Below are positions 1 through 58,699 of a stretch of 64,000 nt of DNA, piece after piece (within the stretch, counting starts at the first letter, position 1; every line of letters begins with the position of its first letter). This stretch comes from Vicinamibacterales bacterium (GTDB lineage Bacteria; Acidobacteriota; Vicinamibacteria; Vicinamibacterales; CAVVIG01): assembly GCA_035537875.1 (NCBI GenBank), contig DATLLJ010000037.1:138315-202314 (forward strand), written 5' to 3'. The notes under the pieces were generated by a model. It saw nothing but the letters and a program-made list of their open reading frames with translations. It was not told the origin of the DNA and made no database searches. The translations under genes and the position numbers were made by a program.

Positions 1-3000
1 CACCAGCTCCGGGTTGACGTTACGGATCGCCGCCAGGTACGTCGTACGCGGGCGCGTGTTCAACTCACCGAGGAGCGCGTAATTGCGGACTTCCGCCTGC
101 AGCCTGGCGACACGACTATTCGGGTCGTTGAGATCACCGAAGACAATCGCTTCGGCGGGGCAGGCTTGTTGACAGGCGGTGACCACCTCGCCATCGCGGA
201 TCCGTCGATCCTGTCTCTCGGTCTCGATCTTCGCGGCGTTGATCCGCTGAACGCAGTACGTGCACTTCTCCATGACGCCGCGGCTCCTGACCGTGACGTC
301 CGGATTGCGGACGAGCTTCAGACTCGGCGTCTCCCAGTCCTGATAGAGCAGGAAATTGAAGCGGCGCACCTTGTACGGGCAGTTGTTGGAGCAGTAGCGC
401 GTGCCGACACAGCGGTTGTACACCATGTCGTTGAGCCCTTCGTGGCTGTGCACGGTCGCGCCCACCGGACAGACCAGCTCACACGGCGCGTTCTCGCAGT
501 GCATGCAGGGCACCGGCTGAAAATACGTTTCGGGATTGCTCGCCGAGCCTCGGTAGTAGCTGTCAACGCGGATCCAGTGCATCTCCCGGCCGCGCAGCAC
601 CTCCGCCTTCCCGACGACCGGGATGTTGTTCTCGGCCTGACAGCCGATCACGCAGGCGTTGCACCCGGTGCAGGCGTTGATGTCGATCGCCATGCCCCAC
701 TTGTAGCCCTCGTATTTCCACTCCGGATAGAGCGTGAGCGTACGGGGCGGCATGGCCTCGATGCCGGGGCTCTCGTGCACGGCTTGCGGATCGCGCAGGA
801 ACGCGTCACGGGTCGCGGCGCGCACCATGTTTCGACCCTCCATCAGGTGGTGATACTGCGTGCAGGCGAGAGACAAGCGATCGCCGGTCTTGACGACTTG
901 CACATCGGTGGCAAACCACGGTTCGTCAGTCGTCCTGATGGCGTGCGCATTGAAGCCGGCGCCGACGGCGTGACGCCCACCTCTCGTGCGTCCGTACCCC
1001 ATGTGGACCGTCAGGCAGTCGTCCGCATGACCGACCACCACGAACAGCGGGCCGCGGACCATCCGGCCGCGATGGCGAATCTCGACCACGTCGCTGACGA
1101 GCTCACCGCCTTCGAAGGTCTCCGCGTATTCACCCATCAGGCGACCAGCAGTCGCAGGGCTGACGAGCACCGCGTTGTCCCAGGTCAACTTCGTGAGGGG
1201 TTTGGGCAGCTCCTGAAGCCAGCCGTTGTTGGCGAAGCGTCCGTCGAGCACCGACGGATCGTTTCGGAAGACCAGGTCGAGGTCCGTGGAAGATAGCCGC
1301 TCGCTTGGGATAGCCGCTTCGCGTGCGGCCAGCGGGAAGGCGGCGGGAGTGAACGCCGTGTCGGGGACAACCCCGTCGTGGAGCCATTGCCGCCACGTCG
1401 CTTCGAACTCCAACGCCGTCCGATCGTTTGCCGTCGTCCTGTTCGCGGCCAATCCCGTCTTCTGCATCCAGTATTCCCGAACGATGTCGTACCCGGAGCG
1501 CCCGGGTCGATCGCTCGTCGCGGCCATCAACTCGTGCGCAGACTTGCCGTCGTAAAGCGGAGCGATGAGCGGCTGCACGATGGAAACCGTGCCGTCGTAC
1601 GCTCGCGCGTCGCTCCACGACTCGAGGAAATGCGCTTCCGGAATGTGCCAGTGGCACAGGGCCGACGTCTCGTCGTCGTACAAGCTGAGGTGAGCACAGA
1701 AGGGAACCTTGCTCATCGCCGCCGCAAACTGGAGATCCGCCGGCGCCGTGTAAGCCGGATTCCCACCCAGGATGAGAAGCGCGTCGACACGGCCGGCCGT
1801 CATGTCAGCGGCCAGCGTGCGAAGGGATTGAAGCTGATCGGTCGGCTCCGCCTCAACCGGCTCGGTGTAGACAACCGTCCGCCCCGCGTTGCCGAGCGCC
1901 GCGTTGATCCCATGGGTGAGGGCATGGACCGACGGCGGCTGCCCCTCACCCGCTATGACGAGGCTCCGCCCCTGCTGTGCCCGAAGATCTCGCACGACCG
2001 CATCGATCCAGCGACGCGCGGATTCGGACAACGTCGACGAATCGGCCGCCAGGTTCGCCACCCCGACCCCGGCGGCAATCAGCCTGGCGGCCACTTCGAT
2101 GTCGCGGGGCCTCATCGGCAAACGATGGTCGGCGCGCGCTCCGGTGGAGCTCGGCGCGCTTTCGATCGCGTACAGCCGGCTCATGCCGGCGGCTGCCTCC
2201 GGACGTCGACGGGCCGAGAAATCGCGTGTGTAGCGAAGGCAGCCGGGACCGCGAGAGAGCACGTCGGCGTCGAGGGCGAGGACGAGGTCGGCGTTCTCGA
2301 AGCGATACTGATGCCCGACGTACCGTCCGAACGCGAGACGTGCTCCCGTGCGCGCGTTGTCGTCGCTGACCGCATCCCACTGATGCCATCTCGCGTTGGG
2401 ATACCGTGCGAGGAGGTCGCGAATCTGCGCGGCAAGAGTCGGCGAGCTCACCGTTTCAGTCAGTATCCGGAGGCCGCTTCCGCCGATGGGGCTCTGCGCC
2501 TGGAGCATCGAACGGATCGCGCCAAGAAACCGGGGCCATGGGCGGATCTCCCCGAGATTCAGCAAGGTCTGCGAGCGATCGGGGTCGTAGAGGTCGAGGA
2601 TCGCGGCCTGCGCGAAGATGTCTGTCGCTCCCACACTGCCCGGATGCAGCGGATTGCCTTCGATCTTCGTGGGCCGCCCCTCGTGGCTTTCGACGAGCAG
2701 GCCGGTCGCCACCCCACCGAGGGTCATGGCTGTGGCGAAGTACAGCGGCCTGCCGGGGACGATCTCTTCAGGCTGGCGCACGTAGGGGACGATCTTTTCC
2801 GCGGGCTGGCGCGTGCACGCCGTCAGGCCCGCGAGAGCCACCGAAGCACCCATCAGCTTCAAGAACTTCCGCCGCGCAACCGGATCGGCCAACGCGTCGA
2901 GGTCGGGAAGCAGACTGGGGAACTCGTTCTGGAGTCGTTCACGGAATGCGGGATCGCCCGCGCGCTCGTCGAGAGTCCGCCACCACTCTCCCTGTCCATC

Positions 3001-3042
3001 GCGCAGCCCGGACGGCGACACGTCTCGTCCCTCGCACGTCAT
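1..3042 (-). CDS. actB: Alternative complex III subunit ActB (molybdopterin-oxidoreductase-like domain fused to a 4Fe-4S ferredoxin-like domain); 3' end cut by the window edge
   Basis: Absent from the ORF track because there is no stop in the window. My translation from ATG 3042 gives MTCEGRD...RRKFLKLMGASVALAGL (twin-arginine signal) and ...HEGRPTKIEGNPLHPGS. Further downstream are Cys clusters CTGCNACVIGC (near 650-690) and CQQACPAEAIVFGD (near 140-180). The frame is consistent at 3042, 693 and 3. ATGA overlap with the actA stop. Confidence 0.85.
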   Translation of the reverse strand, partial: MTCEGRDVSPSGLRDGQGEWWRTLDERAGDPAFRERLQNEFPSLLPDLDALADPVARRKFLKLMGASVALAGLTACTRQPAEKIVPYVRQPEEIVPGRPLYFATAMTLGGVATGLLVESHEGRPTKIEGNPLHPGSVGATDIFAQAAILDLYDPDRSQTLLNLGEIRPWPRFLGAIRSMLQAQSPIGGSGLRILTETVSSPTLAAQIRDLLARYPNARWHQWDAVSDDNARTGARLAFGRYVGHQYRFENADLVLALDADVLSRGPGCLRYTRDFSARRRPEAAAGMSRLYAIESAPSSTGARADHRLPMRPRDIEVAARLIAAGVGVANLAADSSTLSESARRWIDAVVRDLRAQQGRSLVIAGEGQPPSVHALTHGINAALGNAGRTVVYTEPVEAEPTDQLQSLRTLAADMTAGRVDALLILGGNPAYTAPADLQFAAAMSKVPFCAHLSLYDDETSALCHWHIPEAHFLESWSDARAYDGTVSIVQPLIAPLYDGKSAHELMAATSDRPGRSGYDIVREYWMQKTGLAANRTTANDRTALEFEATWRQWLHDGVVPDTAFTPAAFPLAAREAAIPSERLSSTDLDLVFRNDPSVLDGRFANNGWLQELPKPLTKLTWDNAVLVSPATAGRLMGEYAETFEGGELVSDVVEIRHRGRMVRGPLFVVVGHADDCLTVHMGYGRTRGGRHAVGAGFNAHAIRTTDEPWFATDVQVVKTGDRLSLACTQYHHLMEGRNMVRAATRDAFLRDPQAVHESPGIEAMPPRTLTLYPEWKYEGYKWGMAIDINACTGCNACVIGCQAENNIPVVGKAEVLRGREMHWIRVDSYYRGSASNPETYFQPVPCMHCENAPCELVCPVGATVHSHEGLNDMVYNRCVGTRYCSNNCPYKVRRFNFLLYQDWETPSLKLVRNPDVTVRSRGVMEKCTYCVQRINAAKIETERQDRRIRDGEVVTACQQACPAEAIVFGDLNDPNSRVARLQAEVRNYALLGELNTRPRTTYLAAIRNVNPELV

Positions 3043-3689
3043 TGGTGACACGTCGAACAGCTCGTGAGCTTCTGGATTTGGTATGCAGCCACGAGCTCCT
3101 CGCCTAGTTCGAGCTGGTTGGGCGGGGGCACGTAGTCGACGCGAAAGACGGCCTCCCGGGGCCGGACGTACTGTTCTGGCCGCCGGTGGCAATCGACACA
3201 CCAGTCCATCTGCAGAGACTGTTCCTGGTACATGAGCGGCATGCGATCGACCTGGCCGTGGCAGGTCGTGCAGCCCACTCCCTTGTAGACGTGGATGCTG
3301 TGGTCGAAGCGGACGAAGTCCGGCAAGTCGTGAACCCGCGTCCACTCAATGGGCAGGCCCGATCGGAAGCTTTGGCGGACCGGTTCGAGAAACGGGCTGT
3401 TGGAAAAGATCTGCGAATGGCACGCCATGCAGGTCTTGGTGGGGGGAATGCCGGCAAACGAGGAGTCTTCGACCGACGTGTGGCAGTAGCGGCAGTCGAT
3501 GCCGTTACCGCCGACGTGACGTTCGTGGCTGAACTGCAGCGGCTGCTCGCGCGCGACGCGGGCCTGGGTCATCCACGACGAACGGTTCACCTTGTCGAAG
3601 ATGCCGAGCAGGCCGGCGATGAAGAAGATCGCGCCGAAAATCGTGACCTTCGCGATGGTATTCGCGCTGCGATGAAAGATCTGCGACAT
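3039..3689 (-). CDS. actA: Alternative complex III pentaheme cytochrome c subunit ActA
   Basis: 216 aa with an N-terminal TM anchor (VTIFGAIFFIAGLLGIF). Five CxxCH motifs: CRYCH, CMACH, CTTCH, CVDCH, CSTCH. Immediately upstream of actB. Confidence 0.85.
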   Translation of the reverse strand: MSQIFHRSANTIAKVTIFGAIFFIAGLLGIFDKVNRSSWMTQARVAREQPLQFSHERHVGGNGIDCRYCHTSVEDSSFAGIPPTKTCMACHSQIFSNSPFLEPVRQSFRSGLPIEWTRVHDLPDFVRFDHSIHVYKGVGCTTCHGQVDRMPLMYQEQSLQMDWCVDCHRRPEQYVRPREAVFRVDYVPPPNQLELGEELVAAYQIQKLTSCSTCHQ

Positions 3690-4402: not shown

Positions 4403-4467
4403 GGGGAGGTCGGAGGTTGGGGGCTAGAGGTTAGGGTTAGAGGTCAGAGGTTAGAGGTCAGGGGGTC
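4401..4467 (+). repeat. Purine-rich tandem array of about 7-nt period (units AGAGGTY / AGGGTT / AGGGGGTC)
   Basis: agggggaggtcggaggttgggggctagaggttagggttagaggtcagaggttagaggtcagggggtc. It fills the whole gap between stop 4402 and ATG 4476. Confidence 0.8.
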
Positions 4468-4475
4468 AAACAAAA

Positions 4476-5159
4476 ATGTCCTTGCTTTCTCCGGCCGACC
4501 AGCAACGTCTCCGTGAATCGTTTGCAGAGATGACGCGGCGGGTCCGGCTGCTGTTCTTCACCCAGACCCTCGACTGCGAGACGTGCCTGCAGACGCGACA
4601 GATACTGGACGAGCTGCCGGCGCTCACCGACAACGTGATCATCGAAGAAGTGAACTTCGTTCTCGACAAGGAACGGGTGCAAGAATACGGCATCGACCGT
4701 GTGCCGGCCGTTGCGATTGCTTACGACATCGACGGCGCCGTGACGGACTCTCGGATCAGGTTTCTGGGGACCCCGTCGGGGTACGAGTTCATTTCACTCG
4801 TGCACGCCATATTGCTGGCGGGCGGACGCGAGTCCATCCTGACGCCTGAGAATCGCATCCGGGTGGCTGGGATGACGACCCCGATCACGATGCACGTCTT
4901 CACGACACCGACTTGACCGCACTGCCCCAGGGCCGTGAGCCTGGCACACGAAATGGCCTTCGCGAATCCCGCGATTACGGCCTACGCAGTCGAAGCGACG
5001 GAGTTTCCGGATCTGGCCCGGCGCTACATGGTGACCGGGGTGCCGAAGACCGTGGTCACGGCTTCGGCCGGCGCCGCGCCGGTCGAGATTCTTGGAGCGG
5101 TTCCGCAGGACGACTTCATCGAGCAGACACTGTCGGCTTCCTCGAATCAGCTGTCGTGA
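4476..5159 (+). CDS. PDO-type (glutaredoxin-like, double thioredoxin fold) protein disulfide oxidoreductase. In-frame TGA at 4914-4916 read as selenocysteine (UPHC in place of CPxC).
   Basis: ORFs 4476..4916 and 4935..5159 are in the same frame and are separated only by TGA plus 6 codons. Read-through gives ...ITMHVFTTPT-U-PHCPRAVSLAHEMAFANP...VTGVPKTVV. The N-terminal half has its own CETC motif. Confidence 0.7.
4923..4946 (+). other. Candidate bacterial SECIS hairpin
   Basis: Stem ccagg (4927-4931) pairs with cctgg (4940-4944), and tg/ca pairs lie outside a CC bulge. The 8-nt apical loop gccgtgag starts 16 nt after the UGA. Confidence 0.4.
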
Positions 5160-6730
5160 GACGCTCGCTTCTTGCTCTGGCCCTCGCCGTTGCGACAGTT
5201 GTCGCGCCGTTCAGGGCCGCAGAGGCGATCCGCTACCGCTTCACTTTTCCCAGGCCGGCCGAGCAATGGATGCAGGTCGAAGGGAGTTTCGCCGAGCTGG
5301 GAGAGAACCCTCTCGAGCTCGTGATGAGTCGGTCGTCCCCCGGACGCTACGCCGAGCACGATTTCGCGAGAAACGTATATGACGTGCACGCCTACGCGGT
5401 CGACGGCCGCGAGCTGCGAATCGAGCGCGGGGGCCGTTCGGAGTGGGTTGTGCCGACGCACTCGGGCAATGTGACGCTCAGATACAAGGTGTACGGCAAT
5501 CGACTCGACGGTACGTACCTGGCGATCGACGGAACCCACGCGCATATAAACATGCCGGCCGCGCTCTTGTGGGCGCGGGGACTCGCCGATCGTCCGGCAA
5601 CGTTGACGTTCGAAGCGCCGGGGAACACGCGCTGGGATGTCGCGACACAACTGTACCCGGGTGCGACGCCCGGTGAGTTCACGGCGCCCAACCTCCAGTA
5701 CTTGATCGACAGCCCGGTCGAGTTCGGCCCCATCATGCTCGAACCGTTCGTCGTCGGGCCACGGATGTTTCGCTTCGCGGCGCACCACACCGGCACCAGG
5801 ATGGAGCTTCAGTCGCTGGTCGAGGATGTCGCGGACATCGTGGCGGAGCAGAGTGCGATCTTCGGGGAATTCCCCGTCTTCGAGACAGGGACGTACACGT
5901 TCATCGCCGACTACCTGTCTTACGCCGCCGGCGACGCGATGGAGCATCGCAACAGCACCGTCATGACGTCGCCTGGCACGATCGGGAATGCGCGGCGGGA
6001 ACTGCTGGATTCCGCATCCCACGAGTTCTTTCACGTATGGAACGTCGAGCGCATCCGGCCTCGAAGCCTCGAACCGTTCGATCTCGAGCGGCCGAACCCG
6101 TCGGGGGAGCTGTGGCTCGCGGAGGGCTTCACCCAGTACTACGGTCCGCTCACGTTACAGCGCGTCGGCCTGCTGGAGGTCGGCGATACGGCGAGAATGT
6201 TCACCACGGTCCTGAACGCCGTATCGGCCGGCGCCGGCCGGTTGGCGCACTCTGCAGAGGAGGTCAGCCGGCGAGCGGTTGACGAGGATCCGAACGGGCG
6301 CCCACCATCAGGAGTGGTTTCATACTATCCGCTCGGCGCAGCCATCGCGCTGGCGCTCGATCTGTCGCTGCGGAGCCGCCGGGGACCGCAATTGAGCCTC
6401 GACGATTTCATGCGTGAAATGTGGGTGCGATTCGGCAAGCCCGGCGGTGCCAGACCCGGCTACGTCGATCGACCCTATACGACGGCCGATGTGGAAGCCA
6501 CGCTCGCATCGGTGACGGGCGATCCCGGGTTTGCCCGTGATTTCGTGGGTCGCTACATTCAGGGATACGAGATAGCGGACTATCGAAGCCTGCTCGCGCC
6601 GGCCGGATTCCTGGTGCGACCAGCTCCGCGCGGGCGACTCGAGGTCGTTCCGATTGAGATGACGGGCGGATCGCTCACGGCATCGCAGCAGACGTTTCGC
6701 CGGGACTGGCTTGGCCCCAAAACAAGGTAA
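5156..6730 (+). CDS. M61 family (glycyl aminopeptidase-like) metallopeptidase, secreted
   Basis: HEFFH zinc motif (SASHEFFHVWNVERIRP) and signal-like N-terminus VRRSLLALALAVATVVAPFRAAEA. Start set at in-frame GTG 5156, which overlaps the preceding stop (GTGA). The track's 4913 start would overlap the PDO gene. Confidence 0.8.
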   Translation: MRRSLLALALAVATVVAPFRAAEAIRYRFTFPRPAEQWMQVEGSFAELGENPLELVMSRSSPGRYAEHDFARNVYDVHAYAVDGRELRIERGGRSEWVVPTHSGNVTLRYKVYGNRLDGTYLAIDGTHAHINMPAALLWARGLADRPATLTFEAPGNTRWDVATQLYPGATPGEFTAPNLQYLIDSPVEFGPIMLEPFVVGPRMFRFAAHHTGTRMELQSLVEDVADIVAEQSAIFGEFPVFETGTYTFIADYLSYAAGDAMEHRNSTVMTSPGTIGNARRELLDSASHEFFHVWNVERIRPRSLEPFDLERPNPSGELWLAEGFTQYYGPLTLQRVGLLEVGDTARMFTTVLNAVSAGAGRLAHSAEEVSRRAVDEDPNGRPPSGVVSYYPLGAAIALALDLSLRSRRGPQLSLDDFMREMWVRFGKPGGARPGYVDRPYTTADVEATLASVTGDPGFARDFVGRYIQGYEIADYRSLLAPAGFLVRPAPRGRLEVVPIEMTGGSLTASQQTFRRDWLGPKTR

Positions 6731-22380: not shown

Positions 22381-23607
22381 ATGACGAAGTACGGTCGATC
22401 GCCGTGGATCGAACTTGCGCCGAAGTCACGCGTGCCCTCGTACCCGCAGCAACGCGGGCCGCTCGAAACCTCCGTCGTCGTCGTCGGCGGCGGGCTCACG
22501 GGGTGCGCGACTGCCTATGCCTTCGCCGCCGCCGGCGTGAATGCCGTGCTGGTCGAGGCCTCGCGCATCGGCCGCGGAGGAACGGGGCTGGCGACGGGAT
22601 GGATCGCCGGTGATCCGGGTGTGTCCTTTGTCGAGGTCGACAGATCGCTCGGGCGTGCGGCGGCGCGACATGCGTTTCGCGCGTGGCGGCGGGCGGCGCT
22701 CGACTTGACCGCGCTCGTGCGGCGCCTCGGGATCCCCTGCGATCTGCGCGCTGGGAGCACGGCGACCGTGGCGCTGACCCCCGATCAGGCGACGCGCCTT
22801 CGTCGAGAGCAGAAGATTCGCCGAGACGCGGGCCTGGAGGCGCCGCTGCTGAACGCGCGGGCGGTCAGGGCCGAGCTCGCCCTCGATGGCGTCGCGGCCA
22901 TTCGAGAACACGCCAGCGGTGTGGTGGATCCCTATCGTGCGTGTCTCGGACTGGCTGCCGCGGCGGCGGCGCGAGGCGTGCGCATCTTCGAGAAGTCGGA
23001 GGTCCGCAAGATCAGTTTCACGCGACGGATCGTCGATGTCATCACCGCTGGCGGTTCGATTCGCGCGAACCGAGTGGTCGTCGCGACGGGTTTTCCGACC
23101 GCTCTGTTCAAGTCGCTGCGGAGACATTTCTGGTTCCGCACCGCTTACTTGGCGATGAGCGACAGAGTGCCGGCGGTCATCCGCAAGCAGCTCGGGCGCC
23201 GCGACGCCATCGTCCGCGACCTCGCGAGCCCGCCGCACGTGGTTCGATGGGTGGGCGATGACCGGTTGCTGGTCGGGGGAGCAGACCTTGAAACGCCGCC
23301 CGATCGTCAACGGGAACGAATCATCCCGCAGCGGACGGGACAGTTGATGTACGAGCTCTCGACGCTCTATCCAGACATCTCAGGTATTCTTCCGCAATAC
23401 GGGTGGGACGCCCCGTACGCGCGGACGTCGGACGGCCTGCCGTACATCGGACCCCATCGGAATTTTCCACATCATCTGTTCGCCTTCGGCGACTCGAGCC
23501 ACAGCGTCACGGGCGCGTTTTTGGCGAGCCGGGCGCTGCTGCGCCACCACCTGGACGAGCTCGAGCCTGTCGACCGCTTCTTCAGTTTCACGCGTCATGG
23601 CGATTGA
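22381..23607 (+). CDS. FAD-dependent oxidoreductase (DAO / glycine oxidase-like family)
   Basis: VVVVGGGLTGCATAYAFAAAG dinucleotide-binding motif, 408 aa. 11-nt overlap with bshB1. Confidence 0.75.
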   Translation: MTKYGRSPWIELAPKSRVPSYPQQRGPLETSVVVVGGGLTGCATAYAFAAAGVNAVLVEASRIGRGGTGLATGWIAGDPGVSFVEVDRSLGRAAARHAFRAWRRAALDLTALVRRLGIPCDLRAGSTATVALTPDQATRLRREQKIRRDAGLEAPLLNARAVRAELALDGVAAIREHASGVVDPYRACLGLAAAAAARGVRIFEKSEVRKISFTRRIVDVITAGGSIRANRVVVATGFPTALFKSLRRHFWFRTAYLAMSDRVPAVIRKQLGRRDAIVRDLASPPHVVRWVGDDRLLVGGADLETPPDRQRERIIPQRTGQLMYELSTLYPDISGILPQYGWDAPYARTSDGLPYIGPHRNFPHHLFAFGDSSHSVTGAFLASRALLRHHLDELEPVDRFFSFTRHGD

Positions 23608-24301
23608 TCTCCTCGTCTTCGGTCCCCACCCCGACGACATCGAAATCGGCGCGGGCGGTATCGTCGCGCTGCACGTGTCACTCGGGTTCGACGTGGGCTT
23701 GTGCGACCTCACGGTTGGCGAGATGGGGAGCAACGGCACGGTGGAGGAGCGGTTGAAGGAGTCGGAAGCCGCGCGCGAGGCTCTGGGCGCCTCGTGGCGG
23801 GAGAACCTCCATCTGCCCGATCGGCACATCGGGAAAGATCCGGCGCATCTGGATGCAGTGGTCGCATTCATCCGGCGGCACCAGCCGCGCGTGGTGGCTG
23901 CGCCGTACTGGGCCGATCGACATCCCGATCATGCGGCGGCCAGCGCACTGGTCACGGAGGCGGTGTTCAACAGCGGCCTGAGAAGATATCGGGCCGAGGC
24001 CGGGGAAGCGTGGAAGGTCGAGTGGGTCTGCTACTACTTCATCAACGACAGCGCTTCGCCTTCGTTTGTCGTTGACGTCACGCCGCACTATGCTCGAAAG
24101 CGCCGGGCGCTCGACTGCCACATCAGCCAGTTTCAGGCGGGACCCCAGGCCGTCGGGACGCGTCTTAATACACCGGTGTTCCGGCAGCTCATCGAGAGTC
24201 GCGACGCCCAGTTCGGCGCCCTGGCAGGGGTGGCGTGGGCAGAGGGTTTCGTCGTCCGGGAGCCGGTCGTGCGGCGAACCCTGTTCAGAGAAGCGACGTG
24301 A
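23597..24301 (+). CDS. bshB1: N-acetyl-alpha-D-glucosaminyl L-malate deacetylase (PIG-L/LmbE family)
   Basis: LLVFGPHPDDIEIGAGG...CDLTVGEMGSNG...PYWADRHPDHAAA...AEGF is collinear with Bacillus BshB1 as I remember it. Directly upstream of bshA. Confidence 0.8.
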   Translation: MAIDLLVFGPHPDDIEIGAGGIVALHVSLGFDVGLCDLTVGEMGSNGTVEERLKESEAAREALGASWRENLHLPDRHIGKDPAHLDAVVAFIRRHQPRVVAAPYWADRHPDHAAASALVTEAVFNSGLRRYRAEAGEAWKVEWVCYYFINDSASPSFVVDVTPHYARKRRALDCHISQFQAGPQAVGTRLNTPVFRQLIESRDAQFGALAGVAWAEGFVVREPVVRRTLFREAT

Positions 24302-24302
24302 C

Positions 24303-25478
24303 ATGAGGATTGGGATCGTCTGCTATGCCTCGGTCGGTGGAAGCGGCATCATCGCGACCGAGCTCGGGAAGACGCTCGCGGCGCGCGGCCACGACGTTCA
24401 CATCCTGAGCAGCGACACGCCCTTTCGGCTGTCGGGCTATCAGCCGGGGCTGACATTTCATCGCGTCGAAACGCCCGCGTACCCGCTTTTTCGCGAGCCG
24501 CAATACCTGTTGTCGCTCGCGAACAAGATTGTACAGGTCGCGCGTCACGAGCAGCTCGACATCGTGCATGCCCACTATGCGGTCCCGCACGCCACCGCGG
24601 CGTACCTCGCGCGTCAGATTCTGCGAGCGGGGCACGGGCCGGTCCCGGCGACGATTACGACGCTGCACGGCACCGACATCACGCTGCTCGGCAGCGACCG
24701 ATCGTATTCGGAGACCGTCGCCTTCTGTATCGACGAGTCCGACGGGGTGACGGCGGTCTCGGAAAGTCTCAGGGCTGACACGTGCCGGGAGCTCGCGGTC
24801 CGCACCGATATCAAGGTCATTCCGAATTTTCTCAACTGCGCGGCGCATCACCGCGTCGACGCGTCAGGCGTTCGCAAGCGGCTGATCGGGGACGATGAGG
24901 CCAAAGTGGCGATTCACGTGTCCAATTTCAGGCCGGTGAAGCGCGTCATGGCCGTCGTCGACGTCTTCGATCGCATCAGACGTGAAGTGCCCGCGCACCT
25001 GCTGATGGTGGGCGACGGCCCCGAGTTGGATGCGGCGTCCCGGCTGGCGCAGGAGCGAGGGTTGGAGGGTCAGGTGCATTTCCTGGGGGAACAGGACCAG
25101 GTGCTGCCGCTGCTCTCGATCGCCGATCTGTTCCTGCTCCCGTCGGCGCAGGAGAGTTTCGGGCTCGCGGCCCTCGAGGCGATGGCATGCGAGGTGCCGG
25201 TCGTCGCGTCCAATGTCGGGGGACTCCCGGAGGTCATCGACCACGGCAGGACCGGCTTTCTGCACCCGATGGACGACTTGGACGGAATGGCCCGGTCCGC
25301 CGTAAGGTTGCTGACCGACAGCCACCTTCATGATCAGATGGCGGCCGCAGGCCTCGCGAAAGTCCGCAGACACTTCTGCGAAGAGAAGATCGTCCCGCTT
25401 TACGAAGGGTTCTACGAGGAAGTCTGGGCACGGGTGGGATCTGGAAAGGCGCGCCCCAGCCGCCCCTCCAGACTGTAA
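24303..25478 (+). CDS. bshA: N-acetyl-alpha-D-glucosaminyl L-malate synthase (GT4)
   Basis: MRIGIVCYASVGGSGIIATELGK...HAHYAVPHA...TLHGTDIT...HVSNFRPVKR...ESFGLAALEAMACEVPVVASNVGGLPEV closely parallels Bacillus BshA. The ATG is 1 nt after the bshB1 stop. Confidence 0.85.
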   Translation: MRIGIVCYASVGGSGIIATELGKTLAARGHDVHILSSDTPFRLSGYQPGLTFHRVETPAYPLFREPQYLLSLANKIVQVARHEQLDIVHAHYAVPHATAAYLARQILRAGHGPVPATITTLHGTDITLLGSDRSYSETVAFCIDESDGVTAVSESLRADTCRELAVRTDIKVIPNFLNCAAHHRVDASGVRKRLIGDDEAKVAIHVSNFRPVKRVMAVVDVFDRIRREVPAHLLMVGDGPELDAASRLAQERGLEGQVHFLGEQDQVLPLLSIADLFLLPSAQESFGLAALEAMACEVPVVASNVGGLPEVIDHGRTGFLHPMDDLDGMARSAVRLLTDSHLHDQMAAAGLAKVRRHFCEEKIVPLYEGFYEEVWARVGSGKARPSRPSRL

Positions 25479-25488
25479 GATTGCCGCT

Positions 25489-28254
25489 ATGAAGCGCTCT
25501 TTCGCCCTGACGGCCGTGCTGGTGGCGCTTGCTCCCTTCGCTCTGGCGCAGCTGCGTGTGGCCCCGGTCGACTACGACCAGGGGCATGTCGCGCTCGGTC
25601 TCGTCCTCCGCCATCTCTCGAACACCGGCATCTACATGATGGCGACGGCCCATCCCGACGATGAGAACAACGGGCTGCTCGTCCTTCTCAATCGCGGCCT
25701 CGGCTATCGCACGGCGCTGGCGACCGCGACGCGCGGCAATGGCGGGCAGAACGAAATCGGCCCCGAACTGTTCGAAGCGTTGGGAGTGTTACGAACCGAG
25801 GAATTGGCGGCGCTGCACAGGTTCGACGGCGCGGAGCAGTACTTCACACGCGCGGTCGATTTTGGATACACGATCGATCTGGCAGAAACGAACCGACTGT
25901 GGGGACGCGACGAGATCATCGGCGACTACGTCCGCCTGATCCGGACGATCCGCCCCGATGTCATCAGCGCCCAGAATCCAAACGCGGTCGGTCCGGGCCA
26001 GCACGCCCATCACGCGTTGGCTGCGATGCTGTCGCACGAGGCGTACAAGGTTGCCGGCGATCCGACGAGGTATCCCGAGCAGATCAGTGAAGGGCTGCGG
26101 CCCTGGCAGCCCAGAAAGTTCTACTTCACCGTCGGCGGGCCAGGCGGCGGCGCGTCAAACGTGCCCGCGCGCGTGTGTCGGATCGATCTGGCTGTCTACG
26201 ACTCGCTGCTCGGACGAACCTTCTCCGAGATAGGAACCGAGGCGCGGAGCATGCACAAATGCCAGGGCCAGGCGCAGCTGCTCGCGCTTCCAGGCCCCTC
26301 GGCTGGAACCTTCACGCTCGCCGGCACGTCGATTCCCGGCCAGATGGACCTCGAGGAGAAGACGCTCTTCGACGGCGTCGACACGAGCATCGTCGGCCTG
26401 GCGAAGTTCGCGGGCTCCGCTCCATCAGCCGCTCTCGTCGAAGCCCTCAAGGGCATCGATACCAGCGTACAGACCGCGCAGATCAAATTCGACACGGAGG
26501 GCGACGCGATGACGCTGCCGCCGCTCCTATCGGGGCTGAGAGCCGTCCGCGCCTTGCGCAGCAGCTTGCCCGCGATGGCCATGGAGAGCGTCGCGCGCTA
26601 TGAGATCGACGTGCGTCTGGACCAGAAAGAGCGCGAGTTCCAGCAGGCCGTGATCGCGGCCAACGGTCTGCGCGTTGAAGCGCTCGCCGACGACGGCGTG
26701 GTGGTTCCGGGGCAAGGTGTACGGATCACGACGATCATCGCCAATCACGGCGTGATGGACGTAACCGTCAAGGACGTCAAGATCGACGGGTTCGCCGGTG
26801 ACGAGGCGTGTCGGCTCACCGCGGCCGTCGCCGGAGGTGGGCCCGGGGGTCAAGGTGCCGGAGCGGCTCAGGCCGGTCCGCCTATCTCGACGCTGAAGCG
26901 TGGTGACGTCGCTCGATGCACGCCTGCCCGCACCATCCCCGCAGATGCGAGGGTGACCGAGCCTTACTGGCATCGAGACGGCGAGGCCGGCCGCTACACG
27001 TTCGACACCGGTGCGCCGTTCGGCCTGCCGTTCCGACCGACGCCGTTTCGAATGCAGGTCAGTCTGGCGTTGCCGACCGGGGACGAAATCATCGAGAGCC
27101 TGCCCGTGCAGTACCGGTATGAAGGCGATATCTTCAGCGGCGAGAAGCGCATGGATCTGATGGTCACGCCGGCGTTCTCGGTCAAGGTGACGCCTGACAT
27201 CGCCATCATTCCCTCGGAATCGGTTCGCCCTGCGGCCGCTGGACGGCCCATTGCGACGCGCGAGCTCCGCGTCACCGTCGTGAACGACAACCCGGGAAAA
27301 GCCGCAGGTGCGGTACGGCTCGAGTTGCCGATGGGCTGGTCGGCGTCGCCGGCAGAGCAGGCGGTGACGTTCACGAGAGCCGACGAATCGCGGACCGTCC
27401 GGTTCCAGATCACGCCTGCAGCAACCGCGGCGGCCGGCGAATTCCGCGTGCGCGCGCTCGCGCAGTCGGGAGCACAGACCTTCGACCGTGGTTTCGACAT
27501 CATCGAGTACTCGCACATCCGCCGTCAGCATATCTACGCGACCGCCAGCGCGCGGTTGAAAGTGCTCGATGTCCGCACCGCGCCGGATCTGACGGTCGGC
27601 TACGTCATGGGATCCGGCGACGACGTCGCGCCTTTCATCGAGCAGCTGGGAGCGCGCGTCGAGATGCTCGGCGCCGACGCGCTTGCCTGGGGGGACCTGT
27701 CGCGGTTTGACACGATCGTGCTCGGCGTGCGCGCGTACGAGCGGCGCGACGACTTGCGCGCCAACAACAGCCGGCTGCTCGAATACGTGGAGAATGGCGG
27801 GACGGTCATCGTGCAGTACAACCGCGCCATGATCAATGACGCCTACGGGCCGTATCCGGCACAGATCACCAATAATCGCATCACCGACGAGAACGCCCCG
27901 GTGCGGATTCTCGAGCCGGCTCACCCGGTGTTCACGACACCGAACCGGTTGACCGAGGCTGCGTGGAGCGGGTGGGTGCAAGAGCGCGGCCTGAGTTTCC
28001 TCGGGGACAAGGACGCCCGCTATCGCGATCTCGTGGAACTGACCGATCCGTTTCCGAATAATCCGGGGCCGAAACGGGGGGCGCTCGTCGAAGCCGAGCA
28101 CGGAAAAGGTCGGTGGCTGTACGTCGCGCTCGGTTTGTGGCGGGAACTCCCCGCCGGCGTCGACGGCGCCTATCCCATCCTGGCAAACCTCATCAGCCTG
28201 GGGAAAGCGCCCGTGTCGCCACGGAGCCCCGCGCCGGCGACCTCCGTGCGTTGA
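25489..28254 (+). CDS. Large secreted PIG-L/LmbE-domain protein with a C-terminal class-I glutamine-amidotransferase-like (ThuA/DUF4159-like) domain
   Basis: Signal peptide MKRSFALTAVLVALAPFALAQ and an N-terminal MMATAHPDDENNG...HHA LmbE motif. The C-terminus has DTIVLGVRAYE...GGTVIVQYN...GKGRWLYVALGLWRELP. 921 aa. Confidence 0.7.
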   Translation: MKRSFALTAVLVALAPFALAQLRVAPVDYDQGHVALGLVLRHLSNTGIYMMATAHPDDENNGLLVLLNRGLGYRTALATATRGNGGQNEIGPELFEALGVLRTEELAALHRFDGAEQYFTRAVDFGYTIDLAETNRLWGRDEIIGDYVRLIRTIRPDVISAQNPNAVGPGQHAHHALAAMLSHEAYKVAGDPTRYPEQISEGLRPWQPRKFYFTVGGPGGGASNVPARVCRIDLAVYDSLLGRTFSEIGTEARSMHKCQGQAQLLALPGPSAGTFTLAGTSIPGQMDLEEKTLFDGVDTSIVGLAKFAGSAPSAALVEALKGIDTSVQTAQIKFDTEGDAMTLPPLLSGLRAVRALRSSLPAMAMESVARYEIDVRLDQKEREFQQAVIAANGLRVEALADDGVVVPGQGVRITTIIANHGVMDVTVKDVKIDGFAGDEACRLTAAVAGGGPGGQGAGAAQAGPPISTLKRGDVARCTPARTIPADARVTEPYWHRDGEAGRYTFDTGAPFGLPFRPTPFRMQVSLALPTGDEIIESLPVQYRYEGDIFSGEKRMDLMVTPAFSVKVTPDIAIIPSESVRPAAAGRPIATRELRVTVVNDNPGKAAGAVRLELPMGWSASPAEQAVTFTRADESRTVRFQITPAATAAAGEFRVRALAQSGAQTFDRGFDIIEYSHIRRQHIYATASARLKVLDVRTAPDLTVGYVMGSGDDVAPFIEQLGARVEMLGADALAWGDLSRFDTIVLGVRAYERRDDLRANNSRLLEYVENGGTVIVQYNRAMINDAYGPYPAQITNNRITDENAPVRILEPAHPVFTTPNRLTEAAWSGWVQERGLSFLGDKDARYRDLVELTDPFPNNPGPKRGALVEAEHGKGRWLYVALGLWRELPAGVDGAYPILANLISLGKAPVSPRSPAPATSVR

Positions 28255-35149: not shown

Positions 35150-35956
35150 TCAGCTCCGCCGTCTCTTGATCAAAGGTTCACCGAGAGGCTCCAGCAAGGC
35201 ACACCCCGAGTGTGGACGCGCCCGGCGGAACTGCTCCGACCCGAGAAGCCGCTGCGCGTCCGCCTGGTTGATCCGACCGAACGGATCGCTGGCGCCCACC
35301 TGCGTCTGATGGCACAGCAGCGCCGCCACTTTCCGCGGGACCCAGGGGGTGACATCCACGATGAACGAAGGGCGCCGTGCCACGATGCCGAATGCGTTTG
35401 GCACGATACTCCAGAAGCCGGATGAAGGCCGTGACCAGCCGCCGGCGACGGCCGCCTCCACGATGCCGTGCATGACCCCTTTGGGCATTGTGACGTAATA
35501 GAGCGACGGCGCTGCATCGCCGAGCGACCGGACTGCAGTCATCGTCCGTTCGTGCACACCGATGTGATCGAGGTGCCAGTACAGTCCGTCCTCAGCGAAG
35601 GTGATGACGGCATCGACGCCGTAGTCACGGATCGCTGCGACGATCTCAGCGTGCAGCTCTGGCACGTCGGCCCATCGTAGATCGCCGTCGGGGTGATCGC
35701 GCATGATCACCTCGGCCACGCCAAGCACTCTTGCGGCTTCGTGAAGCTCCGCCGCCCGTGCCCGTCCGAGGTCGCCGTCTGGCACCAGCGCCGGGTCGCT
35801 GACCCATCCCCGTCTGCCGTAGGACGCACAGAGCAGCACCACACGGGCTCCGGCATCCGACAGACGCGCAAGCGTGCCGCCGCACGCGAGGGACTCATCG
35901 TCTGGATGCGCGAACACGGCGAGCACGGTCCGGCCGCTGAAATCAGCCGCGGCCAT
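35150..35956 (-). CDS. PIG-L/LmbE family deacetylase
   Basis: From ATG 35956: MAAADFSGRTVLAVFAHPDDESLACGG...HPDGDL...HLDH. 14-nt overlap with the GT4 gene. Confidence 0.8.
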   Translation of the reverse strand: MAAADFSGRTVLAVFAHPDDESLACGGTLARLSDAGARVVLLCASYGRRGWVSDPALVPDGDLGRARAAELHEAARVLGVAEVIMRDHPDGDLRWADVPELHAEIVAAIRDYGVDAVITFAEDGLYWHLDHIGVHERTMTAVRSLGDAAPSLYYVTMPKGVMHGIVEAAVAGGWSRPSSGFWSIVPNAFGIVARRPSFIVDVTPWVPRKVAALLCHQTQVGASDPFGRINQADAQRLLGSEQFRRARPHSGCALLEPLGEPLIKRRRS

Positions 35957-37010
35957 GATTCGCCCCCACGAGCCGCCGGTACACCGCTTCATACTGCTCG
36001 ACCATGCGATCGACGCCGAAGCGGGCCACCGCGCGATCGCGCACCTTTCGGCGATCGAGTCCGAATACCCGCGAAAGCCCGGCGGCCATCCCTTCCTCGT
36101 TCTCGAACACCATCCCCGTGACCCCGTCGTCGACAATCTCGCGCACGGCACCGCAATCGAGTGCCGCCACCGGGGTCCCGCAGGCCATGGCTTCCGCCAG
36201 GACGAGCCCGAACGGTTCGGGCGTCTGGACCGGGTAAAGCAAGGCGCGCGCGCCGCCGAGCAGATTCACCTTGGCAGAGTAATCCGCTTCTCCGGCAAAG
36301 ACGATCTGCGCGCCATCGACGAGGGGCGAGACGACCGTGCGGTAATACTCGTTCTCGGCCGCAGCCAGAATCAGGCGCGTGCCAGTGGTCCTCGCGATGT
36401 CGATGGCTTGAAGCACCCCCTTGCCCTCGGTGAACCGACCGAGAAACAGCAGGTAGTCGTCCGGGTCTGGCCGAAACGCGAGCGCGTTCGTGTCCACCGC
36501 ATGCAGAACGGTGCCGACGATGTTGAGGCCTTGCATCAGCCGGGCCTGTTCCGATGAGATCGCGACGAAGGCCGCTTCCGGATATTTCGACCACAAACCC
36601 ACTTCGTTGGGCGCGGGAGAGTAGTGCAGCGTTTGGAGGACGGGAGCGCGGGCGAGCCGGACGAATGCCAGCGCCATCGGGTAGTACTCGGCTTCGTAGT
36701 GGACGAGGTCGAAGTCCGCCGATCGTTCGATCGCTGCGGCGAGGTTCAAGAGCTCATAGAACTCCCATGGCCACATCTGCGGATCGTGGCTGTACCCGTG
36801 CGGGTAGATGGCGTGCAGGCGGGCCTGGGTCAAGGAGTCGCCGGTCGCGAAGAGCGTGACGTCGTGACCGCGCGCGACGAGACCCTCCGTGAGCAGCGAC
36901 GTCATGGTCTCGACAGAGCCCGAACGTGGCGGAGGAATCGTCGTCGAGACCGGCGCAATGTGCGCGATCCGCAGAACCTGCCGATCGCGGGCCTGCCGCT
37001 GGCGGCTCAT
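35943..37010 (-). CDS. Family 4 (GT-B) glycosyltransferase
   Basis: From ATG 37010: ...LRIAHIAPVSTTIPPPRSGSVE...FLGRFTEGKG...PEPFGLVLAEAMACGTPV. ATGA overlap with the upstream gene. Confidence 0.8.
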   Translation of the reverse strand: MSRQRQARDRQVLRIAHIAPVSTTIPPPRSGSVETMTSLLTEGLVARGHDVTLFATGDSLTQARLHAIYPHGYSHDPQMWPWEFYELLNLAAAIERSADFDLVHYEAEYYPMALAFVRLARAPVLQTLHYSPAPNEVGLWSKYPEAAFVAISSEQARLMQGLNIVGTVLHAVDTNALAFRPDPDDYLLFLGRFTEGKGVLQAIDIARTTGTRLILAAAENEYYRTVVSPLVDGAQIVFAGEADYSAKVNLLGGARALLYPVQTPEPFGLVLAEAMACGTPVAALDCGAVREIVDDGVTGMVFENEEGMAAGLSRVFGLDRRKVRDRAVARFGVDRMVEQYEAVYRRLVGANHGRG

Positions 37011-38125
37011 TCGCCAGCCTGCTCGATCAGCCGCGGGAGCACCGTGGCCGAATCGAAGTGTGCGTGCGCGAGGTCGGCCGCAGACTTCGCATGGTGGTCG
37101 TAATCGCGGTTCAGATCGTCGATCCCCCTCAGTGCGTCCTCGAGCGTCGAGAAAGCGAGGAGACCATGCCCGGACGGAAGATGGTCCGTCCAGCCCGTGT
37201 CCTGCACGAGAGCGGGTCGTCCGGAGGCCAGATAACACTCGGTCCGATCGCTGAACCATCCCGAGCGGGTCGCCACGTATGTATGCTTGGCGACTCCGAA
37301 TTCGGCTTTGGAGCGATGGATGAAGTCACGGTACGCCGCCGGCGTGCGAGAGACGCTCATCGCGTCCACCGTGTCCCAACCCCGATCGCGCAGCAGCTGT
37401 TGCGGTCCGTTGATCGCCAGCTCGAACCGCTGCGGTGTCCGCGATGGCATGTCGATGAATCTGAGAAACTCCTGATCCTTGTTGCCGCCGACGTCGGTGA
37501 AGCTCTCGATCTGCCACGTCATGACACTCGTGAACCGGTCGCCGGGGGGCAGGCTCGTCCGCCAGTCATCGAGCGTGACCGGCTGCCACGTCTTGTGCCA
37601 GGTGAAGGTGCCGGTGGGCACCGGCGACCGTTCCGTTCCGATGTTCGACCCGAACGTGAACAGGTGGTCGAAGCGCTCGAAGAACGCGACGTACCACGGT
37701 TCGGCTTTCGCGATGGCCAGTTGCGTGAAGGCCGGATCCGAGTCGATGAAGATCTTGCGTGGGATTCTGAGATATTCGTCGCGCCAGAACCAGGATCCGC
37801 CGGAAAGATTGATGAACAGGTCGGCGTCCGAGGCATAGAGACGAACGTCCTCCGCGGAGCGCCCGTGGTAGCTACCGTCGTAGTTCACGAATGACCAGCG
37901 ATCGCCGAGGCCATGGGGATGGAGCGTGGCGTTGATATACGAGGTGCCGTACGAGGGATCGGTGGCGCGCGTGTTCTGCACCGGATCGTAGACACATTCC
38001 CCGGTGTCTTCGATGTAGAAGACCTCGTGTCCCAGCGCTCGAAGGCCGAGGAGGTACATCAGCGAACACCAGGTCACGCCGCCGAAAGGGTATCGCGCGA
38101 TGATGCCCGCGAAGAGAATCTTCAT
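37007..38125 (-). CDS. CgeB-like (Glyco_trans_1_2-type) putative glycosyltransferase
   Basis: MKILFAGIIARYPFGGVTWCSLMYLLGLRALGHEVFYIED. The C-terminus SKAEFGVAKHTYVATRSGWFSDRTECYLASGRPALVQDTG fits my memory of the CgeB/YkvP C-terminal domain. Confidence 0.5.
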   Translation of the reverse strand: MKILFAGIIARYPFGGVTWCSLMYLLGLRALGHEVFYIEDTGECVYDPVQNTRATDPSYGTSYINATLHPHGLGDRWSFVNYDGSYHGRSAEDVRLYASDADLFINLSGGSWFWRDEYLRIPRKIFIDSDPAFTQLAIAKAEPWYVAFFERFDHLFTFGSNIGTERSPVPTGTFTWHKTWQPVTLDDWRTSLPPGDRFTSVMTWQIESFTDVGGNKDQEFLRFIDMPSRTPQRFELAINGPQQLLRDRGWDTVDAMSVSRTPAAYRDFIHRSKAEFGVAKHTYVATRSGWFSDRTECYLASGRPALVQDTGWTDHLPSGHGLLAFSTLEDALRGIDDLNRDYDHHAKSAADLAHAHFDSATVLPRLIEQAGE

Positions 38126-54511: not shown

Positions 54512-56011
<1,500 letters not shown>

Positions 56012-56053
56012 CTCTCTCTCCTTGGATTCAGGGCCTGGCTTCGCCAGGCGCTC

Positions 56054-57019
56054 TTAGCTCGCTCGTTGTGCCGTCGCCACGAAGAGTCCGGGCCCCTTCG
56101 CTTTGGGATCTGGCGGCAGGGGTGTCACGCGCGATTGTTCGAAGCCACTTCCAGTCAGCAGTCCGGTGATTTGCTCCTCCGAGAAGCCAAGCCATACGTG
56201 ACCCATCTGTTGCCGGTAGTTCTCGCGATCGTGCGGCAGCATGTCGGCGATGACGATACGCCCGCCACGCTTCAGGACGCGCGCCGCTTCGGCGAGCGCG
56301 CGTGCCGGTTCTGCGACATGGTGGAGCACGAGCATCAGCATCGCCGCGTCGAGCGCGCCGTCACCGCCAGGACTCACGGGATCGATCGGCAGCGCCTCGA
56401 GTTCGCCGCGCCGCAACTCGACGTTGTCGAAACGATGCAGCCGCTTCCTCGCCGCCTGCAGCATGGCCGACGAGCCGTCGACTGCGATAATCCGCGCCAC
56501 GAACGGCGCCAGGGCGGAGGCGACCTGTCCCGTTCCACAGCCGAGGTCACCGACCGTCCACGCCGCATCGGCGAACGCCGCGAACGCGGCCAGGTGGAAG
56601 CGGTCGCCAAACAGCTCGTCGCGCAGGCGGTCCCACTGTCCGGCGGACGAGGAGAAGAAATCCAGCGATGTCGTACGACGGGCCGCCAGCGCCGCCACGA
56701 GGCGTCGCTGATCCTGCCCGGCCGCCGCCGTCGGACCGACCTGATCCCGGACGAGCAGCCAGAGCCGCCGCTGTGCGGGATCCAATTCGTCTTTCGACAT
56801 CGCGTACAGCCGGCTCGTGCCTTCGGCACGTGAGGCGATCCATCCGCCGTCGACCAGCGCTTTGAGGTGGCGGCTCACGGTCGACTGAGGCAGCTGCGTG
56901 ATCGTGCACAGCTCGGACACCGTCAGCTCGTGGCGGTCGAGCAGCAGCAGGAGACGGCTGCGGGTCGTGTCGGCGAGCGACGCGAGGTGATCGATGATTA
57001 CGGGGACGCGTTCATTCAT
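56054..57019 (-). CDS. sahR: ArsR-type HTH fused to a SAM-methyltransferase-fold domain (SahR-like SAH-responsive regulator), copy 1
   Basis: LADTTRSRLLLLLDRHELTVSELCTITQLPQSTVSRHLKAL, then DLGCGTGQ...VLKRGGRIVIAD. Directly upstream of ahcY on the same strand. Confidence 0.6.
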   Translation of the reverse strand: MNERVPVIIDHLASLADTTRSRLLLLLDRHELTVSELCTITQLPQSTVSRHLKALVDGGWIASRAEGTSRLYAMSKDELDPAQRRLWLLVRDQVGPTAAAGQDQRRLVAALAARRTTSLDFFSSSAGQWDRLRDELFGDRFHLAAFAAFADAAWTVGDLGCGTGQVASALAPFVARIIAVDGSSAMLQAARKRLHRFDNVELRRGELEALPIDPVSPGGDGALDAAMLMLVLHHVAEPARALAEAARVLKRGGRIVIADMLPHDRENYRQQMGHVWLGFSEEQITGLLTGSGFEQSRVTPLPPDPKAKGPGLFVATAQRAS

Positions 57020-57088
57020 CCGTTAAACCGGATTGAAGGATACACTGGGTGCCCCGCTCGACGCAAGAGCCGCCGCAGCGGCCGTCAA

Positions 57089-58676: not shown

Positions 58677-58679
58677 TCA

Positions 58680-58695
58680 ATGAATGTAGATTCAT
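58680..58695. promoter_or_regulatory. AT-rich inverted repeat ATGAAT-gtag-ATTCAT immediately upstream of sahR copy 2
   Basis: Perfect 6-bp arms. It sits in the 23-nt gap between the fpg stop (58676) and GTG 58700. Confidence 0.3.
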
Positions 58696-58699
58696 AGAT

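Follow-up and report, generated by a model that had tools for sequence, protein, structure and literature searches.

A protein disulfide oxidoreductase (PDO) gene at positions 4476-5159 of a 64,000-nucleotide stretch from an uncultured member of the Vicinamibacterales (Acidobacteriota; contig DATLLJ010000037.1, positions 138,315-202,314; the whole stretch is called the window below) very probably encodes a selenoprotein, in which the in-frame TGA at 4914-4916 is decoded as selenocysteine (Sec) at the active site. The Sec reading, which the initial annotation had proposed from the nucleotide sequence, is supported because the TGA occupies the alignment column of the nucleophilic cysteine, because at least 120 species carry a TGA there, because the segment downstream is under purifying selection, and because a hairpin specific to the Sec forms lies at the distance of a selenocysteine insertion sequence (SECIS). 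Sec at the UxxC motif of TIGR02187 proteins goes back to 2004 in the literature and is reflected in the NCBI model name, and no new mechanism or family is involved; the locus is a further, mis-split member of a catalogued selenoprotein family in a poorly studied lineage.

The gene, its reading frame and its protein family

The features of the gene and of its downstream neighbour are as follows.

4476-5159, plus strand: coding sequence of the predicted PDO selenoprotein, 227 sense codons including UGA as Sec147, followed by the stop TGA 5157-5159 (basis: translation, TIGR02187.2, match to 1A8L)
4575-4586, plus strand: CxxC motif of the N-terminal thioredoxin-fold unit, C34-E-T-C37; both Cys invariant in 24 of 24 aligned sequences; matches CQYC of the Pyrococcus furiosus PDO
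4914-4916, plus strand: in-frame UGA, predicted to be read as selenocysteine (U147); Cys in 23 of 23 homologues, TGA in at least 120 species genomes, identical in three assemblies
4914-4925, plus strand: redox motif of the C-terminal thioredoxin-fold unit, U-P-H-C150, with Sec predicted in place of the N-terminal (attacking) Cys of CPHC
5156-6730, plus strand: M61 peptidase gene, whose GTG start overlaps the PDO stop 5157-5159 as GTGA (gene call; Pfam PF17899/PF05299)

From ATG 4476 to TGA 5157-5159 there is one open frame whose sole internal stop is TGA 4914-4916, and sequence and translation bear out the earlier description of two same-frame open reading frames (ORFs; 4476-4916 and 4935-5159) divided by nothing but this codon. 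The read-through peptide is HVFTTPT-[TGA]-PHCPRAVSLAHEMAFANP...GVPKTVV, in which T-P-T-[TGA]-P-H-C-P are residues 144-151. The automatic gene caller applied to the source contig cuts the gene in two, giving ORFs of 146 and 74 amino acids.

Searched with Cys put at the TGA position, the read-through product matched the NCBIfam model TIGR02187.2 (PDO_seleno_TRX, 'protein disulfide oxidoreductase', equivalog) with 232.9 bits against a cutoff of 185, residues 7-220 falling on profile positions 3-208 of 209. Pfam detects its C-terminal thioredoxin/glutaredoxin unit, and the N-terminal domain of AhpF shows a weaker similarity. Two tandem thioredoxin-fold units are predicted from the end-to-end sequence alignment with solved PDOs (residues 1-222 to 1-225; 1A8L and 1J08), to which the AhpF N-terminal domains 1ZYN and 1HYU can be added. 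We therefore regard the whole of 4476-5159 as a single 227-residue cytoplasmic PDO ('glutaredoxin-like domain protein', homologue of the AhpF N-terminal domain) with two predicted thioredoxin folds.

The search retrieved 4412 homologues from 5.8 billion proteins; the best share 64-77% identity with the window protein and are 213-281 residues long (mostly about 220-235), and the named ones among them belong to Acidobacteria or Vicinamibacterales. When such homologues (64-77% identity) were aligned, the TGA column was Cys in 23 of 23, and all invariant C-terminal residues were kept in the window. This alignment, together with the P. furiosus PDO, confirmed the claim that the stop falls exactly on the first catalytic Cys of the C-terminal motif. 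The segment VTPTCPYCP, which the initial annotation had given for such proteins, proved right, as ...vfvTPTCPYCP... of 1A8L aligns to ...vftTPTCPHCP... of the window protein, and the N-terminal unit does retain its own CETC.

Recurrence of the TGA and the hairpin of the Sec forms

One genome per GTDB species was searched with a degenerate 29-nucleotide (nt) DNA pattern for FTTPT-TGA-PHC, which was found in at least 120 species genomes, compared with a chance expectation estimated at about 0.03 in the 1.2e12 positions searched. The listed matches (at least 120) are metagenome-assembled genomes (MAGs) labelled Acidobacteriota (Vicinamibacterales, Terriglobia, Blastocatellia), Chloroflexota, Methylomirabilota/Rokubacteria, Bacillota, Symbiobacteriaceae, Desulfitobacterium, Gemmatimonadota and others. 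At 106 of 120 listed loci the gene is complete and continues past the TGA for 60 or more conserved in-frame codons, typically 70-90; the others are mostly truncated where the fetched sequence ends, and L084 carries a frameshift. In the latter the frame departs about 45 nt past the TGA (…ASPPHHGVRG) into a 590-codon ORF, probably through a frameshift or an assembly error in that MAG.

In the 52 codons directly past the TGA, differences between the window and its nearest relatives amount to about 19-22 synonymous and 7-9 non-synonymous codons. Because the frame stays open at most of the listed loci, synonymous changes are in excess and the invariant residues are intact, the post-TGA segment must be translated and under purifying selection; pseudogene, sequencing-error and two-gene readings are therefore taken as excluded. 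Sec and Cys forms are interleaved among the nearest relatives of the window, and a rough neighbour-joining tree gives about 12 Sec/Cys state changes, compared with about 63 when the labels are shuffled. Sec-PDO genes were also seen in an archaeal MAG (Ca. Nitrosocosmicus, L067) and in a Bifidobacteriaceae MAG (L095); their local sequence types are those of Methylomirabilota (with the peptide of L045) and Vicinamibacterales, respectively, and both genes likely stem from bin contamination.

The nucleotides of the recoding signal are numbered here from the U of UGA. In the window the candidate signal is the following.

4927-4944, plus strand: candidate bacterial SECIS upper stem-loop, arms ccagg 4927-4931 and cctgg 4940-4944, loop gccgtgag 4932-4939, with G22-U23 at 4935-4936

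This hairpin had been described beforehand as a ccagg/cctgg stem with an 8-nt loop that begins with G, 16 nt after the UGA; it is present as stated and, taken by itself (5-bp stem, 8-nt loop), has a free energy of -8.2 kcal/mol. The bSECIS model of Zhang & Gladyshev (2005), in so far as it is quoted in PMC13188914, allows an apical loop of 3-9 nt, an upper stem of 4-16 bp, a UGA-to-apical-loop distance of 16-37 nt and a free energy of at most -7.5 kcal/mol, with G in loop position 1 or 2, usually followed by G or U. The window hairpin lies within the loop, stem and energy limits (8 nt, 5 bp, -8.2 kcal/mol), and its loop GCCGUGAG opens with G, as the model asks, and carries the conserved G-U at loop positions 4-5. 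Its spacing is borderline, with 15 nt between the UGA and the loop, the first base of which is the 16th nucleotide.

The Sec forms were compared with a control set of 104 metagenome loci that encode the same peptide with TGY (Cys) at the TGA position. We scored simple hairpins enclosing G22-U23 in the loop in registers i+j = 44-47. The mean best hairpin energy was -7.3 kcal/mol in the Sec forms vs -2.1 kcal/mol in the Cys forms (p=6e-18), and a hairpin of -5 kcal/mol or lower was found in 80% of the former and 17% of the latter. Within the identical peptide context PHCPRAVxLA, the means were -8.4 (TGA) and -1.5 kcal/mol (TGY; p=2e-13), and because the difference persists there, the hairpin must be written in synonymous codons. 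Arg is encoded by CGG in 83/112 Sec forms, whereas the Cys forms use mostly CGC (54/90), with CGG in 17/90. Covariation was also detected: C at nt 15 goes with G at nt 30 in the Sec forms (Fisher 4e-8), an association absent in the Cys forms (p=0.47), and the pair 17-30 is G-C in 16 sequences and C-G in 9, the compensatory counts being the informative part, and not the 100% pairing, since these sequences were pre-selected for one register. Certain lineages alter amino acids on both arms jointly, e.g., CCGTCCGC-GGT-GCGGACGG in L031. The window hairpin has register 45, which is common to ten Vicinamibacterales-type loci.

Generic stability, measured as minimum free energy (MFE), was rejected as a SECIS test, as the mean MFE is about equal in Sec and Cys forms of this GC-rich coding region; it was replaced by the register-specific scoring and by ensemble base-pair counts after removal of the nucleotides that the ribosome would be expected to cover. 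Judging by ribosome footprints in general, a ribosome with UGA in its A site would cover nt 1-12, and the removal of these nucleotides imitates that state. The expected base pairs in registers 44-47 were then 3.81 in the Sec forms vs 0.67 in the Cys forms (p=3e-18), whereas competing structures hide the difference when the entire 48 nt are folded. The Sec loci could not all be fitted to one gap-free consensus structure, the register varying by lineage (i+j = 44, 45, 46 or 47).

Another hairpin was observed in about 30 Vicinamibacterales-type Sec loci besides L005, L012, L013 and L023. In these, UGACCGC (nt 1-7, the Sec codon among them) is perfectly complementary to GCGGUCA (nt 19-25). The resulting strong hairpin would bury the UGA and could not coexist with the SECIS hairpin; in whole-segment ensembles it is confined to the Sec forms (registers 26-27; 2.2 vs 0.17 expected base pairs), and it does not occur in the window.

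The selenocysteine reading weighed against its alternatives

Several observations speak against the Sec reading or leave it weaker than the comparison above would suggest. The RNA fold of the UGA region, which the initial annotation had recommended, upheld its expectation in part: the hairpin exists and fits the bSECIS limits, but it is not the predicted fold of the window sequence, where its ensemble probability is 1-4% and rival folds are 2 kcal/mol better. The window 60-nt MFE has a z-score of 0.20, so that single-sequence folding fails to single the hairpin out, and the loop opens with GC and not with the commoner GG or GU. A search of Rfam (the whole window at the gathering threshold, and 4880-5020 at E<=10) returned noise only, with no match to a SECIS family. 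Fourteen Sec loci, mostly of Chloroflexota, are without a simple hairpin around G22-U23 (L007, L010, L024, L047, L052, L060, L068, L086 and others). The DNA is identical, TGA included, in three assemblies (ERZ27256789 and ERZ27256926 from ENA, and Logan SRR8536189), which may share overlapping read sets and are therefore of uncertain independence. Finally, the TIGR02187 family is graded as predicted with high confidence and not as experimentally verified (PMC13188914).

The genes of Sec synthesis and insertion were not found in the regions covered either. The E. coli proteins SelA, SelB and SelD had no tblastn match in the window or in 223 PDO loci, and ARAGORN, which found E. coli selC as a positive control, detected no tRNA-Sec, and no tRNA at all, in the window, 120 Sec loci and the Cys loci. 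The Pfam annotation of the source contig as assembled in ERZ27256789 (k141_2582277, 289.6 kb), from about 128 to 207 kb (~79 kb), comprising ~45 window ORFs and gene tables to 5.5 kb past the left and ~9.4 kb past the right window end, contains no sel genes and only housekeeping genes, the right flank (L231) having been checked solely through the Pfam gene table; an ACIII-cytochrome oxidase cluster, purEK, the his operon, glycosyltransferases, ahcY, metH, a glnS-like gene and prfC were seen. Selenoprotein genes may lie apart from the sel genes, and the absence of the latter from ~79 kb therefore neither supports nor refutes Sec. Acidobacteria are recorded as Sec users or as having selenoproteins (PMC1794560 Table 2; PMC12013277 Table 2).

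The low ensemble probability of the window hairpin arises because the GGCC tetramer at 4931-4934 can pair elsewhere. Together with a second GGCC at 4955-4958 it permits the long-range pairing AGGGCC/GGCCUU, which reaches -10.2 kcal/mol in silico vs -8.2 kcal/mol for the SECIS hairpin, and this competition may leave the SECIS of the window weaker than those of its relatives. Support for the window hairpin comes from comparison with the other loci and not from the window sequence alone. The predicted folds of the 14 hairpin-less, mostly Chloroflexota loci pair G22-U23 and part of the UGA, and these loci may carry a different SECIS class.

Among the alternatives, the TGA could be a nonsense mutation, the mark of a pseudogene or a sequencing or assembly error, with TGC or TGT turned into TGA and a truncated 146-residue single-domain protein, or nothing functional, being made. 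Such a change needs one base, gene callers take TGA 4914-4916 as a stop, the hairpin of the window is weak, and ~79 kb of contig are without Sec machinery; yet the same codon is TGA in at least 120 species and in all three assemblies, 80 downstream codons run without a stop or frameshift, keep all invariant residues and show the synonymous excess, and the hairpin is a trait of the TGA forms, not shared by the TGY forms of the same peptide. The GTGA overlap also counts against it: an independent gene caller agrees with the initial annotation that the next gene begins at 5156 (M61 peptidase, 5156-6730), implying that the peptidase would be translationally coupled to a translated PDO C-terminus. 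We consider this explanation very improbable. Still harder to believe is a pair of separate genes, one for an N-terminal thioredoxin-fold protein (4476-4916) and one for a 74-residue C-terminal protein initiated at GTG 4935; the automatic gene caller proposes such a pair by calling both ORFs, and GTG 4935 could serve as a start codon. In that case PHCPRA, invariant in all homologues and encoded by the 18 nt from the TGA to this GTG, would go untranslated; a protein starting at V154 would lack the entire redox motif; GTG 4935 is the codon of the conserved Val154; and the break falls exactly on the Cys codon in at least 120 species. Orthologues that exist as two genes split at this point would have favoured the two-gene explanation, but no homologue has a gap or intergenic spacer there.

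Read-through of the UGA might also occur without selenium, through near-cognate insertion of Trp, Cys or Arg where the UGA-C context is leaky, or through a general reassignment of the stop codon. UGA followed by C is a weak termination context, and the Sec machinery was not found in the ~79 kb searched. On the other side, TGA is the ordinary stop of most window genes and hence not reassigned, the site would be inactive with Trp or Arg as its catalytic residue, the PDO family and the phylum are documented Sec users, and the Sec-form-specific hairpin offers G-U at an fdhF-like distance, as SelB recognises. We rate selenium-free read-through as very improbable too, and prefer selenocysteine as the residue encoded by TGA 4914-4916.

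If the UGA is read as selenocysteine, decoding would follow standard bacterial recoding: with the UGA in the ribosomal A site, the mRNA just beyond the entry channel would fold into the stem-loop 4927-4944 and expose G22-U23, and SelB carrying Sec-tRNA(Sec) would bind this loop and deliver Sec in competition with RF2. Sec147 would then take the place of the attacking Cys in the C-terminal CPHC and, in the course of thiol-disulfide exchange, would pair with Cys150 in a selenenylsulfide; the CETC site of the N-terminal unit would stay as it is. We infer Sec insertion, SelB binding, the presence of selABCD in the genome and a catalytic benefit of Sec.

More tentatively, and with doubt prevailing on our side, few selenoproteins might be as widespread as Sec-PDO in the uncultured phyla of soil and groundwater (Acidobacteriota, Methylomirabilota, Chloroflexota). 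The history of Sec-PDO might comprise a dozen or more Sec/Cys switches (in either direction, on a rough tree) and a SECIS that holds G22-U23 in place while the register of the stem drifts through synonymous and amino-acid changes, with a second, non-consensus SECIS class in Chloroflexota and a competing UGA-burying hairpin in one Vicinamibacterales class; this distribution and plasticity are perhaps undescribed. For annotation, it matters that standard gene callers give two meaningless ORFs of 146 and 74 residues, very probably in a hundred-plus other genomes as well. The selenoprotein status implies that abundant soil Acidobacteriota and their neighbours need selenium for part of their cytoplasmic thiol-disulfide chemistry, and the Sec/Cys pairs, with matched sequences that have or lack the hairpin, form a clean, naturally occurring training set for predictors of bacterial SECIS elements.

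Genomic surroundings and known relatives

Immediately 5' of the PDO start codon, at 4413-4458, there is a tandem heptamer array (GAGGTTA x6.7; AGAGGTY units, Shine-Dalgarno-like) which occurs as a single copy in the window; similar arrays precede the Cys-form PDO genes of L210, L185 and L193, and GGTTCAR arrays stand before those of L203 and L205. Upstream and divergent (window 1-3689, minus strand, and L001 1-9214) lies an alternative complex III-like cluster with a multihaem cytochrome c, a 1015-residue Fe-S subunit, NrfD, ActD and cytochrome c, as well as SCO1/SenC and COX2. No thioredoxin reductase gene was seen adjoining the PDO gene in the gene table of the locus. The segments 23348-28254 and 35150-37325 contain three genes for PIG-L-family deacetylases in pairing with two for GT4 glycosyltransferases, an arrangement which recalls low-molecular-weight-thiol biosynthesis by BshA/BshB or MshA/MshB; a tie to a redox partner of the PDO is speculative. 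Two paralogous genes for ArsR-type HTH::SAM-methyltransferase fusions (56054-57022, minus strand; 58667-59641, plus strand) stand in methyl-cycle surroundings, next to ahcY (54512-56053) and metH (59638-63366, the start of which overlaps as ATGA). The other TGA-joined same-frame ORF pairs of the window (hisA/hisF, an M16 peptidase pair and an epimerase/ATPase pair) were discarded as selenoprotein candidates, being ordinary adjacent genes.

The initial annotation had left it undecided whether the family was already catalogued; it is, as the TIGR02187 UxxC selenoprotein family. TIGR02187 proteins with UxxC are credited as a predicted selenoprotein family, in passages of PMC13188914 and PMC9312934, to Kryukov & Gladyshev (2004), and the family also appears in Zhang et al. 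(2006; PMC1794560), with Carboxydothermus hydrogenoformans and Symbiobacterium thermophilum. Nothing relevant came up when the literature was searched for Vicinamibacter and selenocysteine, and no paper was found that names Vicinamibacteria for this family; BSepDB has no mention of the PDO family or the phylum, and the deep-Sep paper none of the PDO family.

A counterpart of solved structure is the PDO of P. furiosus (1A8L), to which window residues 1-222 align with E=2.4e-35, CQYC corresponding to CETC, CPYC to UPHC and TPTCPYCP to TPT[U]PHCP; related archaeal and Aquifex PDOs (1J08, 2AYT, 2YWM, 2HLS) belong with it. All of these have Cys at both sites, hyperthermophilic hosts, a solved structure and measured activity, whereas the PDO of the window is known from its sequence and has a predicted Sec at the C-terminal site. 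Selenocysteine-containing thioredoxins and glutaredoxins (UxxC; Treponema denticola, Geobacter, Clostridia; table in PMC13188914) share the thioredoxin fold and the replacement of the N-terminal Cys of CxxC by Sec, but are single-domain proteins of about 100 residues (PF00085/PF00462), whereas the window protein is a two-domain PDO with Sec predicted in the second domain only.

With respect to the recoding signal, the SECIS of E. coli fdhF (the stem-loop 3' of UGA140, read from the genome), with a GGUC loop at nt 22-25 and an upper stem from nt 15, is likewise a stem-loop within the coding sequence, its upper stem beginning about 11-14 nt past the UGA in both cases; G-U lies at nt 22-25 in fdhF and at nt 22-23 in the window, so that the geometry is equal within 1 nt, and one PDO class has the identical GGUC loop. 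The two share no sequence homology, however: the window has a 5-bp stem and an 8-nt loop without a bulged U, binding of SelB is predicted here, and the register of the PDO stem drifts between lineages (i+j = 44-47).

Known Sec-PDOs of TIGR02187 (e.g., ABB15282.1 of C. hydrogenoformans, and that of S. thermophilum) are selenoprotein relatives: the window protein scores above the cutoff of their profile family and resembles them in UxxC with one (here predicted) Sec and in the two-thioredoxin-fold architecture, and Symbiobacteriaceae loci are among the listed FTTPT-TGA-PHC matches. They differ from the window in their hosts, thermophilic Firmicutes or Symbiobacterium vs an uncultured Vicinamibacteria-like acidobacterium from a soil or sediment metagenome, and the SECIS register varies by lineage.

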